A DNA stretch of 21,924 bases from a virus (Duplodnaviria; Heunggongvirae; Uroviricota; Caudoviricetes). Below, one piece after another: positions 2,829 to 15,736 of the stretch. Location of the stretch: positions 1-21,924 of the IMG/VR virus record IMGVR_UViG_2609459833_000005. The stretch is one strand, 5' to 3'. Position 1 is the first letter of the stretch, and the number at the start of each line of letters is the position of its first letter. The notes below the pieces were generated by a model that saw only the letters and a list, made by a program, of their open reading frames with translations, made no database searches and was not told the origin of the DNA. A program made the translations under genes and the position numbers.

Positions 2829-3947
2829 TCAAATAACCAACTTAACCCATTCCTGACCTCGAGTATCGTTATAGCGATCGGTGGTAGCCTGGACTTTATG
2901 TCCCAGTAATGTTTTTGTATCGACACCCTGTGCGCGGTACAACCGTTCTGACAGGGAGCGTTGTTCATGAAATGTTGGCGGTGTTTTTCCTGCTGGTGGA
3001 ATTATTCCAGCCAGATCTCGCGCTTTGGCGAAGTAATCGCTCAGGTTGTCTTTACTCATCGGTTTTGGTTGTTTCTGGTGCCTACTATGGATTAGGTATG
3101 GACTCAACATTCTGTCCCTGCATCCATCAATAACTTCTTTTAACGATACCCCAATTTCATCGCATCGTAGCGTAAGAGGTAAGGCCAGACGCATTCCGGT
3201 TTTTCCTTGGGTTATATGTAGATGTCCATTCCATACATCTGAAAAACGCATGTGGCAAATGTCATCACGGCGCTGACCAGTAACAATCGCAAGAAGCATT
3301 GCGTTACGGATAAAGTGTTTTTCTGGCGTTGCATTATAAATTTTTTGCCAGTCTTCCAGGGTGAGTCTGGATCTGGTCACTTTAGGGATCGGTTTACGGG
3401 TAGCCTCCGGAGGATTCCATCCAGGAGGAACTTCTCCCGCATGCTGTGCTTCTTTATAAATATCAACCCATAATCCGCGATTTACTCTTGCTGTGCTGAC
3501 CATGTCTTTATCCATCCACTCGTCCAGTATTAATGCAAAGTCTCTTACCTCCAGTTCTTTCAATGGGTGGTTTCCCAGGCGGGAAACCAGGTATGCAGCC
3601 ATTCGCACTTTTTCTTTGTGGGTTGTAGCTGCAATGTCTCCATTTTTCAGTCGCGAATCCTGTATTTTCAGATATCGATCAACCCATGCCTTTAATCTGA
3701 TACCCCGACGTTTTGTTGCTGATGGACTTTCATCAATTTTGCGCATGAAATATTCTGCTTCTGCTGCAGCTATTCGCTGATTGGCTGTTGCAGCGATTTT
3801 TTCTGCCTTGACTTTGTCTGTCCCAAGTCCGTGAAATTTTCCAGTCACAGGATTTTTATACTGGTAGTAAACCTTGCCAGTTCTGCGATCAAACTTTTCG
3901 TAAAGAGCTGCTACGTCAGTACTGTTTTTTCGTGGCCTCGGTGACAT
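2829..3947 (-). CDS. int: Phage integrase, tyrosine recombinase
   Basis: 372-aa ORF adjacent to att; C-terminal catalytic-type residues (…GQRRDDICHMRF…, …LLGHKVQATTDRYNDTRG…) typical of lambda-family integrases. Confidence 0.9.
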   Translation of the reverse strand: MSPRPRKNSTDVAALYEKFDRRTGKVYYQYKNPVTGKFHGLGTDKVKAEKIAATANQRIAAAEAEYFMRKIDESPSATKRRGIRLKAWVDRYLKIQDSRLKNGDIAATTHKEKVRMAAYLVSRLGNHPLKELEVRDFALILDEWMDKDMVSTARVNRGLWVDIYKEAQHAGEVPPGWNPPEATRKPIPKVTRSRLTLEDWQKIYNATPEKHFIRNAMLLAIVTGQRRDDICHMRFSDVWNGHLHITQGKTGMRLALPLTLRCDEIGVSLKEVIDGCRDRMLSPYLIHSRHQKQPKPMSKDNLSDYFAKARDLAGIIPPAGKTPPTFHEQRSLSERLYRAQGVDTKTLLGHKVQATTDRYNDTRGQEWVKLVI

Positions 3948-4246: not shown

Positions 4247-6685
4247 TTAAAAATCAGCCTGACTCGGGATCAGTTTTTGCCAGATAACTGAAACGTATTT
4301 TGCCTGGTAACGGGCGTCATCAAGTGCATTATGGCGCTCACCTTCGAATGGAATAGCCGTTCTGGCATCGAAGTCTATGGCTTTCCCCAGCTCAACGATT
4401 GTGCGTACATCGCGATCGTTGTAGTAACGCCACGGGCAGGGGATCCCCTGCCGTTCGTATGAACGGCGCAAAATCGTGTTTTCGAAGTTGGCTCCATTTC
4501 CCCAGACCTGAACAAAAAATTCACCGGAGTTTTCGTCGATAAATTCCCGCAATTGTAACAGTGCATCATCTAACGGGATTTCATCGGTCATAATGGCAGA
4601 CTGCGCTTCACGTGATTGCTTCAGCCACCTTTTAATGACGTCACGATCAATGACTCCGCCAGCAGTTTCCAGATCGATAGTCTTACTAAATTCCGGTCCC
4701 ATATCTCCGGTTTGCGGATCGAAAAATATTGCATCTATTGAGATAATCGGGGCATCAGGATTTTTGCCCATTGTTTCAAGGTCAATCATCAGATGGTGCC
4801 ACAACCTGCTGGTGGATGTGCTTTTACGATGACCGTTCACCTTAATTAAGGGATTTGCTGTCTCGCCTATTTCATTATTGTCATTGGCATGTTGATCGCC
4901 TTCGGTGCACTCCTTGTTCGGGAGTCCGGCACTTTCTATTTCCTCTGGATCTTTTTCCCGGGCTTCATCCTGGCTTTCTTCGTTGAATGTCTCCTGGTAG
5001 GTTGCGTCACCCATCACTGCGCCACAATCAGGGCAGTTACCACCACCAGTCTGATTGCATGCGGTACAAACTTTTTCCTCTTCCTGTTGCACGACTGGTT
5101 CAGGTTGTTTCGTTTCTGGCTCGTTTTGTAACGCATTTGGGCTGTTTTGTTCCGCTTTCTGGTCGTTCTGTTCCGATTCTTGCTGGTTCTGGTTTACAGA
5201 ATCGCGGGTTTCAATCCCCTTTACCCATTTCGGATCATTCGGGTCGCTAATCCCTGCAACAAATTCTCCGCGAGAGGCAGCAAGCAACTTATCGGCGTCA
5301 GGCTGGCTGATATTGGCTGCCTGCATAATTTTGTTTACTTCGTCAGCGGTAACTTTTACCTGTGACTTGTCATCCAGCGGCTGCGGGTCCTGATGATGTT
5401 CAACTGTATCCGCTGCCATTGTTTCAGCCGTTGCCTGTTCATCTGCCATTGCGCCAGATGGTTGCGGGTTATCTTCATCATTTTTTTCTTCTTCTGTTTT
5501 GCACTCAGCAGCCAGTCCGCCGTTAATTTCTTCCAGGATATCTTTTTCCGGTGTATGCCGGGCAGCCATGAGCGTTTCAGCTGTGGGATTCTCGTGATCA
5601 GTTTCTGTCAGGTTGGCATTGATATACCCCTGAAGGCGCCCCGGGTAGTGATAAAACTCAGGGTGGGCGCTTCGGATAAGTGCAAAAATAGCTGCGCGGG
5701 AATAGTCCAGGATACCAGGGGTTGCGCGAAGTGCTGCGGACCATTCCCTGAACGGACTTTCTTTTTTCAGGACGATTTCTTTTGCGCGACGATAAACGCT
5801 GCCCGGAATTTCATAAATATTAAAATCCATCGGAAGTGTGGCTGCTGCAATCTCCACATCCAGCGCATCGAAGGTGTGTACTAAATTCGGATTGCGATCG
5901 GTTTTGTTCCCGCCACCGGCATTTGCACCGGAAGCCGTACGGGTGATACGCGAAACACGATTTCCTTTCATCCACTCTTTTGTCAGCAGACCCCGATCAG
6001 TGTAATCAGCGTCCAGGTATGCCTCGAAAAAAGCAGTTATCAGTCCCAGGTCTGAATTACCGGGATTAGGGAAAACTTTGTCAGTGTCGCGTACCAGTTT
6101 GTGAAGGTCGCGAATCTCCAGCGGGTCGAGCAGCTTTGTTTTGTGAGAAATGGCCAGGGCAGTAACAGCCGGCAGTTCTTCCGCCCGTGCTATATGTAAT
6201 GCCTGAAGTTCTTCCCGTGCAACGTGCGTTACTGGTTTTTCGCTGCTGTGTTGCGCAAGCCAGCGAATGGGCAGCTCCTGACCAGAAACCGGCAGGAGCA
6301 TATTCTCCTCAATCTCCGTCATGTCTTCGCCGTTGACGTTGGTATTGTCAGTACTGGCTGGTTTCTCCTGCACGGAGGGAGAGGGCGCGATAAATACCAT
6401 TGTAATGCCATCTTCCCCGCCTTTTTCGTATCGGTTGCAGAATTCGGTATCAAACACGCCTTCAGGTGGAAGGTCATTCACAACGGGTAAATGGACGCGA
6501 ACGGGTTTTTTAAAGTCGTCTTCATCATAATCGTTGTCATCCATTGCGGTAATGCAGCGGGAGATGGCAACAGATAATTTTTTTGCTGTAGTCCAGTAAA
6601 AACCACCTTTAATTCCCAGACGTTTTCTGACTTTGTCATTTTTTGCTTCGCAATATAGCGCAAATTCTTCTTTATCAGTGCTCAT
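4247..6685 (-). CDS. Exodeoxyribonuclease VIII-like prophage protein with C-terminal DEDDh (DnaQ-like) 3'-5' exonuclease domain
   Basis: 812-aa ORF; C-terminus has MIDLETMG (Exo I D-x-E) and [10 protein letters not shown] (Exo III with His); internal zinc ribbon [16 protein letters not shown]; long acidic low-complexity linker. Position matches the early-left recombination gene of lambdoid prophages. Confidence 0.6.
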
Positions 6686-6777
6686 TGATAAACCTCATTA
6701 CAGATTTAAGGGTGAACAAATCCCTGCCATTGCTGGCATTTTTAATCCGTTGGTATGGTGTTAATATGGCTGGAGGG

Positions 6778-6966
6778 TTATCCAGCCGGTGTTTCGTTAT
6801 TCAGGTACAGCGATACTTTTTTTACCGGGAGGCATTCACCAGAAATTTTTTGCTCGTCTCTTGCCTGGAGGCAGGATTCTTTACTGGCATAAATTCCGGT
6901 AATCACATTCTGTGATTCACCCGTTATAAGAAAAACCGTCATCATCAGTGCAAATGCTGAAGTCAT
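6778..6966 (-). CDS. Small hypothetical protein, positional analogue of Qin YdfD
   Basis: 62-aa ORF overlapping the dicB-like stop (ATGA overlap); hydrophobic N-terminus MTSAFALMMTVFLITG. Assignment by synteny only. Confidence 0.4.
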   Translation of the reverse strand: MTSAFALMMTVFLITGESQNVITGIYASKESCLQARDEQKISGECLPVKKVSLYLNNETPAG

Positions 6967-7329: not shown

Positions 7330-7385
7330 AAAAAGGGTGGCAGAGCAGTCACGGAGTAGAACTGATGCCACCAAATACTACACAT
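7330..7385 (-). ncRNA. dicF: DicF-like small RNA (ftsZ-targeting sRNA of Qin-type prophages) ending in an intrinsic terminator
   Basis: Minus strand reads uuugguggcaucaguucuacuccgugacugcucugccacccuuuuu: stem GGUGGCA/UGCCACC plus U-run, nearly identical to remembered DicF; sits about 180 nt upstream of dicB-like gene as in Qin. Ends approximate. Confidence 0.55.
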
Positions 7386-7685
7386 GGGTATTGTGGCGGG
7401 GCTGTCACTTAAGCGTATGGTCAACCTGACGACCCGGTGCATTTTCTGGAGCAATGGAGGAAGCCCCAGCCATACTTACCGCCGCGCCATTTCGCGGACT
7501 GCCACAACCGGAAGTGCACGGTCGAAGAAATTTAACGACAAGCTTTATATGCAAAGGAATCTCGCCGTGCGCTTTCGTGTTGTGTGCCTGCTTTTAACCA
7601 CGTCAGGCGAGGTGGTTTCCGTCATTCCCCAATAACAGGAAATCTGTATAATCTGGATATCCCCAACAACAGGAAGGTGTTTTAT

Positions 7686-8823: not shown

Positions 8824-9114
8824 TTAACAGCTTTTGTTTGGATACTGCCTTCGTGAGTGAACTACATTTACGATCTCGATGTTAGATGCTGTTACTCGGT
8901 AAAGTATTATGTAGTTAGGATGGGTCACTATCTCACGAAGGCCTAGAGCTCTTTCGCTTGGTGGATACAGGTAAGGGTGTTCAGTAAGTGACAAAACTGA
9001 TGTTTCAATGCGTATTTTTAGTCTACGTGCAGCGGGAGGGTTTTCCTTGGCAATATAGGCTACGATCTGACGCAAATCATCACGCGCAGAAGGTAGCCAT
9101 AAAATGGGCAGCAT
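8824..9114 (-). CDS. parE: ParE/RelE-superfamily type II toxin
   Basis: 96-aa ORF with ParE-like motifs (ARDDLRQIVAYIAKENPPAARRL, YIILYRV, IEIVNVVHSRR); start overlaps the stop of the upstream 63-aa ORF. Confidence 0.8.
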   Translation of the reverse strand: MLPILWLPSARDDLRQIVAYIAKENPPAARRLKIRIETSVLSLTEHPYLYPPSERALGLREIVTHPNYIILYRVTASNIEIVNVVHSRRQYPNKSC

Positions 9115-9305
9115 TACTCACTCCTGTTCGTCGAAGCTATTTGCGCAATAAGGTTTTCCATTTCAGCCATTACTTCGTCATGCGGAATTGCAGGACGGGG
9201 GTCTGCGAGGCTTGCTGCCACTTTGGTGCGTAACCATTCGTTATAGCTGTTTTCTTGTTCGATTGTTTCAAATTCTGAAATTATCGGGGAAAGGACTGTA
9301 CTCAT
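9114..9305 (-). CDS. Small antitoxin partner of ParE (PaaA-like, 63 aa)
   Basis: 63-aa acidic ORF with strong SD gaggagg 8 nt upstream; translationally coupled to parE. Size and context match the PaaA antitoxins of three-component PaaR-PaaA-ParE systems described in E. coli O157 prophages; family assignment from memory. Confidence 0.6.
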   Translation of the reverse strand: MSTVLSPIISEFETIEQENSYNEWLRTKVAASLADPRPAIPHDEVMAEMENLIAQIASTNRSE

Positions 9306-13690: not shown

Positions 13691-13911
13691 GCGGAAAAAG
13701 AATGACTAACAGAGAGCTTGTCGATGCCGCGATTAAGCTTGCTGGTGATTTTTATTCAATGATGGGGTACACGCATCGCCCAGGCTTCAAATATTGGGAG
13801 TCTCCTCACCCGCAAGAGCAACTGGTATTTCAAATGGCCTGCCGTGCTTTTGAGGTTATTCGCGGTTCTGATGTGATGGACGCCGTTGCCGACTTGGAGG
13901 ATGAAGAGTGA
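13687..13911 (+). CDS. Hypothetical small protein
   Basis: 74-aa ORF translationally coupled to both neighbours; no recognised motif. Confidence 0.4.
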   Translation: MSGKRMTNRELVDAAIKLAGDFYSMMGYTHRPGFKYWESPHPQEQLVFQMACRAFEVIRGSDVMDAVADLEDEE

Positions 13912-14603
13912 GCGAGATTAACTATCAGGCACTGCGTGAAAAGGCAGAGAAAGCAACTAAAGGAAGCTACATCGTAGGGCATACATCTGTTAACCAGCAC
14001 GGCAATTTAACAGGAGTTTTTGTTTGTCAAAAATGGAAAGGAGAACCCGGTGGCGTGATTGCCGAATGTCATGTTAACTGCCTGATTGAATCAGATGCTC
14101 AGGCTTATGCAAACGCTGAATTTATAGCAGATGCTAACCCAGCTACCGTACTGGCGCTACTGGATGAACGGGAAAGAAACCAGCAATACATCAAACGCCG
14201 CGACCAGGAGAACGAGGATATTGCGCTTACGGTTGGGAAGCTGAGAGTTGAGCTTGAGGAGACAAAATCAAAACTCAACGAGCAGCGTGAGTATTACGAA
14301 GGTGTTATCTCGGATGGGAGTAAGCGCATAGCAGAACTGGAGGAGCGGGAAATAAAACCAGCCAAAGGCGAAGTTCTTGTCGTTGTATCTGGTTTTACTG
14401 GTTGCGGGAAAAGCGCCATTGCCGGGGAAATAGAAATCGCGATGAAGGCTATTGGTGTACCGGTTCAGTGGACTAATGGCGATGCGGAAAAGCGCATGAC
14501 AGGAGCTGACTGGCTGACAGCGATTGAGATGTACAAACCAACAGTGCGCATCGTGGAAGTTAATGTGCCACACGCCGCGGGCATTCGCATCAAAGGAGAG
14601 TGA
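13908..14603 (+). CDS. Ead/Ea22-like coiled-coil prophage protein (tentative)
   Basis: 231-aa ORF with N-terminal YQALREKAEKATKG motif and a central coiled-coil segment; family recalled from lambdoid ea-region proteins, not verified. Confidence 0.4.
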   Translation: MSEINYQALREKAEKATKGSYIVGHTSVNQHGNLTGVFVCQKWKGEPGGVIAECHVNCLIESDAQAYANAEFIADANPATVLALLDERERNQQYIKRRDQENEDIALTVGKLRVELEETKSKLNEQREYYEGVISDGSKRIAELEEREIKPAKGEVLVVVSGFTGCGKSAIAGEIEIAMKAIGVPVQWTNGDAEKRMTGADWLTAIEMYKPTVRIVEVNVPHAAGIRIKGE

Positions 14604-14604
14604 T

Positions 14605-15120
14605 ATGGCGTTAACACACCACGAACTCTGTCAGATTGCGTACAAGTTCCTTAAGCGCAACGGGTTCAAGGTTTGCTTTCATGACCGCTTTGTTGCTGTA
14701 ACCAGTACCGGAGAACAGCCAGATGCTATGGGATTCAGAAATTCAGCATCATGCCTGATAGAGGCGAAGTGTTCTCGTGCTGACTTGTTGGCAGATAGAA
14801 AAAAGCGTTTCCGTAAAAATCCCTCACTTGGCATGGGCGACTGGCGATTCTTTATTAGTGAGCCGGGAATTATTTCAGTTGAGGATTTACCACCTGGCTG
14901 GGGATTACTTCACGTTGTTAACGGAAGAGTACGGAAAGTACATGGGTGGCCCAGGGGTAATTGCTGTTGGGGTAATCCTGACGATAAGCCATTTACTGGA
15001 AATAAGCAGGTTGAATGCGATTACATGTTATCTGCATTAAGGCGCATGGAGTTGAGAGGGCACCTTAATGAAATATATGACGGTGTAATTGTTAATAAGA
15101 AAGAAGGAAACGCGGCATGA
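14605..15120 (+). CDS. PD-(D/E)xK nuclease-superfamily protein
   Basis: 171-aa ORF starting at the ATG at 14605 (SD aaaggagag); motif GEQPDAMGF...CLIEAKCS fits the E...PD...(D/E)xK catalytic signature; Cys/Trp-rich C-terminal half. Confidence 0.5.
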   Translation: MALTHHELCQIAYKFLKRNGFKVCFHDRFVAVTSTGEQPDAMGFRNSASCLIEAKCSRADLLADRKKRFRKNPSLGMGDWRFFISEPGIISVEDLPPGWGLLHVVNGRVRKVHGWPRGNCCWGNPDDKPFTGNKQVECDYMLSALRRMELRGHLNEIYDGVIVNKKEGNAA

Positions 15121-15191
15121 CCACTATTACCAAAGATTGACTGCTGACAATCCAGCATTGGCGCGAAACATACGGACCGGGTAGCAACGTT

Positions 15192-15407
15192 GTGCTTCCA
15201 GCAGAAGAAGCGGAAGAGCTGGCACGGATTGCGCTGGCATCACTGGCAGCAGTATCGGATGAACGAGCAGCCTATGAATTATTTATGGAGAAGCGTTTCG
15301 GAGAATCTGTAGATCGCCGCAGAGCAAAAAATGGCGATAGAGAATACATGGCATGGGATATGGCGCTTGGCTGGATTATCTGGTGTCACCGCGCCGCCAT
15401 GCTTTAG
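15192..15407 (+). CDS. Hypothetical small protein (GTG start), coding status uncertain
   Basis: 71-aa ORF overlapping the next ORF by 55 nt; no motif recognised. Confidence 0.3.
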   Translation: MLPAEEAEELARIALASLAAVSDERAAYELFMEKRFGESVDRRRAKNGDREYMAWDMALGWIIWCHRAAML

Positions 15408-15736
15408 GCTGGAAACTTTGGGAAAATAAGGGTTCGTCAACCAATAATTTTCGGGAAATCTCGGAAACGTCAACCAATAATTTTCGGGAAATCTCGGAAA
15501 CGTCAACCAACTATCCGGTAACTCCGGATGGTTGGATAAGCTGTAGTGAGCGAATGCCGGATGATGGTCAGCACGTAATTATTTTATGTGATGGCGCATT
15601 CGTTCTTTATGCGCAATATCGAGACGGTGAGTTTTTTGATGTAGTCCGTAATGGTGATGAATTTTTCGAAACACAGAGCCGCAATGTAACCGACTGGATG
15701 CCGTTACCAGAACCGCCGCAGGAGGTGCGCCAATGA
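15353..15736 (+). CDS. DUF551-family phage protein with an N-terminal 11-residue tandem repeat; start uncertain
   Basis: C-terminal domain ends in the DUF551-type W-x-P-L-P-E-P-P motif (TDWMPLPEPPQ); N-terminal region contains STNNFREISET twice, encoded by a 33-bp tandem repeat. Confidence 0.5.
   Translation: MGYGAWLDYLVSPRRHALGWKLWENKGSSTNNFREISETSTNNFREISETSTNYPVTPDGWISCSERMPDDGQHVIILCDGAFVLYAQYRDGEFFDVVRNGDEFFETQSRNVTDWMPLPEPPQEVRQ
15435..15510 (+). repeat. 33-bp direct tandem repeat, 2.3 copies (cgtcaaccaataattttcgggaaatctcggaaa)
   Basis: Two exact 33-bp units (15435-15467, 15468-15500) and a 10-bp partial third; in frame with the DUF551 ORF. Confidence 0.85.

Follow-up and report, generated by a model that had tools for sequence, protein, structure and literature searches.

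Among the described systems, the closest to the protein analyzed here are the MmcB-like proteins (PF06319, formerly DUF1052/COG5321), whose members include MmcB of Caulobacter crescentus and 3DNX (Ruegeria pomeroyi SPO1766). Caulobacter MmcB is described as an SOS-regulated PD-(D/E)xK endonuclease which protects against mitomycin C and cisplatin, and it was hypothesised in a review to work with translesion polymerases in interstrand-crosslink repair (PMC9578287). In 2005, DUF1052/COG5321 had been predicted to be an active nuclease related to the AHJRs, to which DUF1052 was tied by profile analysis, and its gene neighbourhoods were described as uninformative (PMC1189080). Another described group, the Hjc proteins (PF01870; 1HH1, 1GEF, 4TKK), has the PD-(D/E)xK lineage in common with our protein. 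Four-way junctions are resolved by RusA, Rap/NinG and T7 endonuclease I. RusA, NinG/Rap and YbcO share a nin-region neighbourhood and an expression class with the gene under study and are possible functional analogues on branched DNA, but they show no sequence or fold kinship to its product, having different folds or motifs, and the Pfam scan gave no match to NinG or RusA. In the literature on MmcB and phages, on DUF1052 and on the exo-xis region, we found no published study of the phage nuclease family described below; in phage papers 'MmcB' appears solely as an annotation label, and the exo-xis-region literature on Stx phages leaves the protein unmentioned.

The window, that is, the whole stretch of 21,924 nucleotides that was analyzed, is a lambdoid prophage of E. 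coli, integrated next to potC/potD, and its best genome match was E. coli SW070917, in which the gene of interest is 100% identical. This gene is a complete coding sequence for a 171-aa MmcB-like/AHJR-type PD-(D/E)xK nuclease-fold protein and lies at 14605..15120 on the + strand, as given by the ORF list and the sequence. It starts with ATG at 14605, ends with TGA at 15118-15120, and is preceded on the same strand by a Shine-Dalgarno sequence, AAGGAG, which was read from the sequence at 14593..14598, 6 nt 5' of the ATG. The predicted protein has a size of about 20 kDa and a single domain, and the ORF aligned end to end, without frame breaks, with homologues of 171-172 aa from Klebsiella, Lelliottia and others; 14605-15120 is an intact early phage gene, with no Rfam match inside it. 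In all three RefSeq E. coli records that were inspected for annotation (the SW070917 and UTME-9 chromosomes and plasmid pMB5646_3), PGAP calls the gene a 179-nt 'hypothetical protein, frameshifted' pseudogene (window 14605-14783; L001 15001-15179, L090 2501-2679 and L091 3001-3179). Since the 171-aa ORF is unbroken and runs collinear with its counterparts in other genera, this pseudogene label is apparently a systematic artefact, which hides the family.

An earlier note on this DNA had described an E...PD...ExK signature in the protein, quoting GEQPDAMGF and CLIEAKCS, and both strings are present, with E37, P39, D40, E53 and K55 as the relevant residues. The 'PD' half of the predicted active site, at the start of beta2, is encoded by the codons for E37-Q-P-D40 (14713..14724, + strand), and the '(D/E)xK' half, at the end of beta3, by the codons for E53-A-K55 (14761..14769, + strand). 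Conservation was calculated from 147 family representatives with less than 50% mutual identity (50%-identity clusters), which were aligned to the family profile. The results showed that the signature is real and that it is kept rather than lost on alignment, being found in 98-99% of the representatives: E37 in 142/144, D40 in 143/144, and E53 and K55 in 145/146 each. Conservation at this level over divergent representatives means that the E/PD/ExK pattern is not due to chance. Further near-invariant positions were H5, D/E27, S57, R58, D60, D64, K67, R70, G78, R81, W99, G100 and L101, several of which fall in the helix alpha2 motif S57-R58-x-D60-F/L61-x-x-D64-x-x-K67, and toward the C terminus E137 (129/132), R146 (117/131) and R147 (118/130) were also conserved. 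The description of the C-terminal half as Cys/Trp-rich held only in the weak sense that residues 86-171 contain 3 Cys and 3 Trp, and it is not a feature of the family: C9, C24, C50, C56, C120, C121, C138, W115 and W122 vary freely, and among the Trp residues of that half only W99 is conserved. This richness is peculiar to the E. coli sequence and without significance. A Cys-based metal or Fe-S site was considered and ruled out because the cysteines vary across the family and therefore leave no metal-cluster signature.

The AlphaFold2 model, which was built from a 43-sequence alignment, had a mean pLDDT of 90.9 and a pTM of 0.84; pLDDT falls only past residue ~160, and disorder is predicted for the final ~11 residues. 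Its secondary structure (H5-18, E23-26, E41-45, E48-54, H58-65, E80-85) forms the canonical alpha-beta-beta-beta-alpha-beta PD-(D/E)xK core, in which D40 marks the start of beta2 and beta3 contains E53/K55, and continues with a beta-hairpin at 100-113 and the C-terminal helices H134-150 and H154-159. A fold search with this model, a check that the note had proposed, returned matches which were nearly all PD-(D/E)xK nucleases, and some of the viral predicted-structure matches, family members aside, are phage proteins that bear the name MmcB-like DNA repair protein. Residues 13-118 (14641..14958, + strand) make up the region homologous to MmcB-like proteins (PF06319/3DNX) and contain the nuclease core (beta1-beta3, helix alpha2 and beta4 with R81) together with the LPxGWGLL hairpin. 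Residues ~119-160 (14959..15084, + strand) form, according to the secondary structure of the model and the conservation, a C-terminal helical extension, which carries the conserved E137 and R146-R147, lies outside the range aligned by hhalign, and is specific to the phage nuclease family.

In single-sequence scans the window protein had no match in NCBIfam or in Pfam (the latter at E <= 1), so that it also falls below the PF06319 threshold with no match to that family at E <= 1, and sequence searches of the PDB with the single sequence and with the close-family profile gave nothing significant. It matched PHROG 9263 (E 8e-122) and PHROG 631 (E 5e-94) over its full length, both unannotated clusters of unknown function, and among the PHROGs a link to MmcB was hinted at only by the weak match to PHROG 5429, 'DNA repair protein' (E 0.002). 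The broader, divergent family profile A2 matched 3dnx_A with an E value of 5e-5 over profile positions 14-118, and the hhalign comparison of A2 with an alignment of 21 MmcB-family proteins gave a probability of 97.9% and an E value of 5.1e-13 over 94 columns; the matches in the MmcB-family search were all of Rhodobacterales type. A 99-residue stretch of 3DNX, taken from the alignment printout, scored E 4.9e-34 on PF06319 MmcB-like, and the closest solved structure is thus an MmcB-like protein. In the alignments with 3DNX, E53 and K55 of the window protein line up with an E-C-K of that structure. Weak matches to PF06319 were found in 13/40 divergent members (best E 2.9e-4) and in 0/43 close relatives, and one member, P0251, passes the gathering threshold of that family with 23.1 bits vs 22. 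From these profile comparisons we conclude that the family is a distinct, Pfam-less sister of the PF06319 MmcB-like proteins in the AHJR lineage, outside PF06319 as it is curated. Homology to a housekeeping recombination nuclease, which the note had weighed against its own reading, was looked for, and the protein showed no membership by sequence or fold in NinG/Rap or VRR-NUC. The motif conservation, the canonical core, the fold matches and the MmcB-like profile homology all agree with the call of a PD-(D/E)xK nuclease-like protein, and we regard this assignment of fold and homology as nearly certain. Its precise placement beside the MmcB-like proteins makes the protein less mysterious.

In comparison with the MmcB-like proteins, the phage family shares a length of about 150-170 aa in a single domain, the D...E-x-K-x-S-R-x-D-F-x-x-D-x-K motif, the R-(F/Y)-(F/Y) strand and the LP..GL(L/I) hairpin, and the identity of the window protein to 3DNX is 23-24%. 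Several features distinguish the two groups. E37 is invariant in the phage family, whereas 3DNX has Leu at this position according to the close-family-profile alignment; the phage family also has a K-K-x-F-R insertion after helix alpha2, the conserved W99, and a longer C-terminal helix with E137/R146/R147, unlike the MmcB-like proteins. A further difference is that the phage genes lie in early phage operons, while MmcB is chromosomal, SOS-regulated and mostly alphaproteobacterial.

The gene order of the window was transferred from the RefSeq annotation of the SW070917 locus. It opens with int, xis and an exonuclease gene, dicB and DicF, RelBE, and repressor-like HTH genes with ydaT; the middle is made up of DnaT-like and P replication genes, DUF1627, DUF977, DUF4406 and a hypothetical protein; and the last part comprises the Ead/Ea22-like gene, the nuclease-fold ORF, a DUF551 pseudogene, hokD/sok, DUF968, RusA and a DUF1133 protein. 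This order, coming from a 100%-identical locus, agrees with the earlier description of the gene as sitting among small ea/nin-type genes. RusA is encoded at 17864-18229, 2.7 kb downstream of the nuclease-fold gene, and the position of the latter after the replication genes and before RusA puts it in the early-right operon, at a place that corresponds to the nin region. Around the gene, the scan gave no more promoter-like or terminator-like sites than chance would. LexA-box-like sites numbered 10 vs 6.9 +/- 2.4 expected, with none beyond chance, so that SOS regulation of the mmcB type does not appear to be directly mirrored; the early operon is indirectly SOS-dependent via repressor cleavage.

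The ORF directly upstream (13908-14603, + strand, 231 aa) has an Ead/Ea22-like N-terminal part, and its stop codon at 14601-14603 leaves a gap of 1 nt before the nuclease-fold ATG, so that the two genes are translationally close-packed. PGAP marks this upstream ORF as 'missing C-terminus' past ~14348, and the ORF runs on in frame for ~80 aa with a Walker-A-like GFTGCGKS; the product appears to be a chimera of the Ea22 type whose C-terminal module has been swapped. The DUF551 gene downstream (15117-15736, + strand) is a pseudogene: at the identical locus, RefSeq marks it as frameshifted and as interrupted by an internal stop. The ATG at which it originally started overlaps the nuclease-fold stop codon (ATGA), and within it a perfect tandem repeat with a 33-nt unit, present in 2.3 copies (15435-15510), encodes STNNFREISET repeats. 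DUF551 was ruled out as an immunity or antitoxin partner, since an intact nuclease gene stands here next to a DUF551 gene that has become a pseudogene.

Several other elements were recorded in the window. According to the transferred annotation, a type II toxin-antitoxin pair of the RelE/ParE-RelB type (8824-9305, - strand) lies in the immunity region beside a repressor-like HTH gene. Matches at the Rfam gathering score were obtained for the DicF sRNA beside dicB (7335-7386, - strand), for the sok antitoxin RNA (16033-16207, + strand), which overlaps the hokD toxin ORF (~16202-16357), for three tRNA genes in the late-regulatory region (20463-20711, + strand), and for the sRNA STnc100 (21543-21748, + strand). 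The SW070917 prophage carries IS4 between the exonuclease and DUF1482 genes (L001 5761-7107 vs window ~6685-6778), and the absence of this element from the otherwise 100%-identical window shows that the source of the window is another genome or allele, though a close relative of this one.

The family is mostly phage-borne and large. The search of 5.8 billion proteins gave 321 close relatives, all of them unnamed, and an exhaustive search by profile through 1.84 billion cluster representatives put the size of the family at 3221 clusters (50% identity) with a cutoff of E <= 1e-3, of which 2438 remain with E <= 1e-10. Among 5426 complete E. coli genomes, 928 carry the gene, at 1297 places of which 248 are on plasmids, with DNA identities of 95-100%. 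At the DNA level 137 phage records were matched, most of which are Stx1- or Stx2-converting phages, and at the protein level 643 phage records had a homologue, virulent phages included. P1/P7-like plasmids are also among the carriers, and distant relatives were found in Ackermannviridae and in phages of Vibrio, Pseudomonas and Bacteroidota. Some homologues carry the names 'adenylosuccinate synthase', 'minor tail protein' or 'structural protein', which are implausible and were treated as misannotations that were probably propagated; the misnamed records are MW411580 (L003 4929-5717), MT711888 (L087 3992-4633), NC_050152, with upf89.0 of P7 (L086 4001-4516), and KX581092. Putative fusions of family members were also observed, and these may be real or may be gene-calling read-throughs. 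They comprise a short Ea22-like N-terminus with HLQ/NRQ low-complexity repeats in Salmonella prophages (P0093, P0096, P0104), a TniB-like ATPase N-terminal domain (P0136), a dATP/dGTP pyrophosphohydrolase (P0221), and the C-terminal extensions of P0176 and P0178 with GS...D-L-D motifs reminiscent of minimal nucleotidyltransferases; P0009 was likewise grouped among them.

The neighbourhood of the gene differs among carriers. In VT1-Sakai the gene, which is unannotated, immediately follows an Ea22-like gene within the exo-xis region; in P7 the homologue, upf89.0, directly follows an Ead/Ea22-like gene in the C1-controlled hea operon; and in strain UTME-9 and a P1-like plasmid the position is similar, with an Ea22-like gene directly upstream. 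In Cba120 of the Ackermannviridae, the homologue orf107 abuts the DNA primase gene, while in Vibrio phage SSP002 the homologue comes after genes for a DnaC-like loader, Pol I and two helicases. Vibrio phage X29 has its homologue among genes for two exonucleases, DUF551, DUF1064, a RusA-like protein (three genes away), Dam and SSB, and in Pseudomonas phage Dolphis a PAPS reductase gene and a DNA methyltransferase gene (gp104) precede it. For a wider view, a census was taken of 70 IMG/VR loci with homologues of 42-75% identity, in which the homologue was nearly always co-directional with its neighbours and overlapping them. The neighbours themselves were hypervariable, the 391 flanking proteins falling into 324 clusters. 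The flanking Pfam families were DUF551 (7), DNA methyltransferases (6 in all) and Ead/Ea22 (3), and other flanking families were dATP/dGTP pyrophosphohydrolase, helicases, NinB, NinG, YbcO, SSB and a 3'-5' exonuclease. No conserved partner gene was found in the 70 loci, where DUF551 was adjacent in 7/70 and an Ea22-like gene in 1/70, and the latter value suggests that the pairing with Ea22-like genes is confined to close E. coli relatives.

The reading we favor is that the protein is a small metal-dependent PD-(D/E)xK endonuclease, a sister of the MmcB-like proteins, which would process branched or lesion-containing phage DNA, and we estimate its probability at roughly 0.5. Metal-dependent cleavage is what we infer from the residue conservation, and on this basis catalytic competence is quite probable, while a DNA-processing role in phage replication, recombination or repair has, in our estimate, close to an even chance. 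In the proposed mechanism, D40 and E53, with E37 and/or D27, would hold Mg2+, and K55 as the catalytic lysine would position the attacking water, while the conserved basic residues K67, R70, R81, R146 and R147 (helix alpha2, beta4 and the C-terminal helix) may bind DNA. The gene would be co-transcribed with the phage replication and recombination genes, and the protein, acting alone without a dedicated partner protein, would cut branched or lesion-containing DNA such as stalled forks, junctions and, by analogy with what was proposed for MmcB, possibly crosslinks. Such cutting would let the phage DNA be replicated and recombined, and it may matter particularly after SOS or mitomycin-type induction. 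The motif conservation, the fold, the MmcB-like homology, the DNA-metabolism neighbours and the presence in replication modules of virulent phages argue for this DNA-processing reading; what counts against it is that the window protein falls below every curated family threshold, that RusA is already encoded in the prophage, that no LexA box stood out from chance, and that the temperate-phage copies lie in hypervariable moron-like regions.

Hypervariable moron-like regions also accumulate defence and counter-defence genes, and the gene might be a conflict gene carried as a moron, encoding either an anti-defence nuclease that would destroy an immune nucleic acid or immune signal of the host, or an effector of superinfection exclusion or of a restriction-like kind, which would cut DNA of the host or DNA coming in. 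The location in the hypervariable ea/nin and exo-xis regions without fixed neighbours, the P7 copy in a hea operon controlled by the C1 repressor, the spread over lambdoid prophages and P1-like plasmids (928/5426 E. coli genomes), and the recurrence of DNA methyltransferases as neighbours (6/142 neighbour clusters and Dolphis gp104) are all consistent with such a role. The window protein, however, had no match to the PADLOC-DB v2 defence models even at E <= 1, it has neither a sensor domain nor a conserved partner, and its homologues occur within the replication modules of strictly virulent phages. In addition, the gene is part of an early lytic operon and no promoter signal stood out from chance, so that it would be silent in the lysogen and would give the lysogen no protection. 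The suggestion of a defence or anti-defence effector, which had been raised in the note, therefore gains no support from the PADLOC search, the absent partner gene or the virulent-phage modules, and we consider a conflict role unlikely. A more specific variant of DNA processing, to which we give similarly little weight, is a phage-encoded damage-tolerance nuclease, made from the earliest transcripts, that would incise or unhook crosslinks and stalled forks on phage DNA and so let it replicate. DNA-damaging agents, mitomycin C among them, bring about the induction of Stx and similar prophages, and with induction by DNA damage the excised phage genome would itself be damaged.

The protein could also be a dedicated Holliday-junction resolvase of the Hjc type, acting as a dimer on four-way junctions before packaging. 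Weak matches to PF01870 were found in 20/43 close and 24/40 divergent members (best E 1.3e-4), and in the weak profile alignment with 1hh1_A the 'PD' falls on P41-D42 and the 'E-x-K' on E55-M-K57, so that D40/E53/K55 coincide exactly with D42/E55/K57 of S. solfataricus Hjc; the profile link between DUF1052 and the AHJRs points in the same direction (PMC1189080). All Hjc scores seen were nevertheless below the Pfam threshold, the relatives with shown scores reaching 16.9-17.7 bits vs 21.1 and the window protein itself having no Hjc match in Pfam. The similarity to Hjc is also weaker than that to the MmcB-like proteins, with which, and not with Hjc, the family shares the extended C-terminal half bearing the LPxGWGLL hairpin. 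RusA is co-resident in the window and a RusA-like gene in X29, and NinG is found near homologues; with RusA present in the prophage, another resolvase would be redundant, which argues indirectly against a unique resolvase. Such a role is, in our judgment, distinctly improbable. The last alternative, a catalytically inert DNA-binding or regulatory protein which keeps the nuclease fold, for example a modulator of the lysis-lysogeny decision, would fit the location in Stx phages, where the gene comes right behind Ea22-like genes in the exo-xis region, whose products influence lysogenisation and induction (PMC3824215 and PMC7093339), and the putative in-frame fusions to an Ea22-like N-terminus in Salmonella (P0093, P0096, P0104) could be read in the same way. 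All active-site residues are, on the other hand, 98-99% conserved over a very deep family. Inactive PD-(D/E)xK derivatives normally lose acidic or lysine residues, and the family includes virulent phages, which make no lysogeny decision, so that we regard an inert regulator as very unlikely.

The results thus uphold the cautious reading of the earlier note, a PD-(D/E)xK nuclease-like protein with an uncharacterised role in a prophage accessory region, by motif, model, fold and profile. The family appears as an unstudied one of a familiar nuclease type; it is no new kind of system and is unsurprising for a phage early region. It is at the same time very widespread, with members in Shiga-toxin phages, yet has neither a Pfam family nor a published function. 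The placement beside the MmcB-like proteins provides a concrete hypothesis, namely a nuclease on branched or crosslinked DNA that affects phage yield after mitomycin C, which is relevant to the exo-xis region of Shiga-toxin phages, itself poorly understood. If the damage-tolerance reading is true, the nuclease would have a direct effect on the yield of Stx phages and on toxin output after antibiotic induction.
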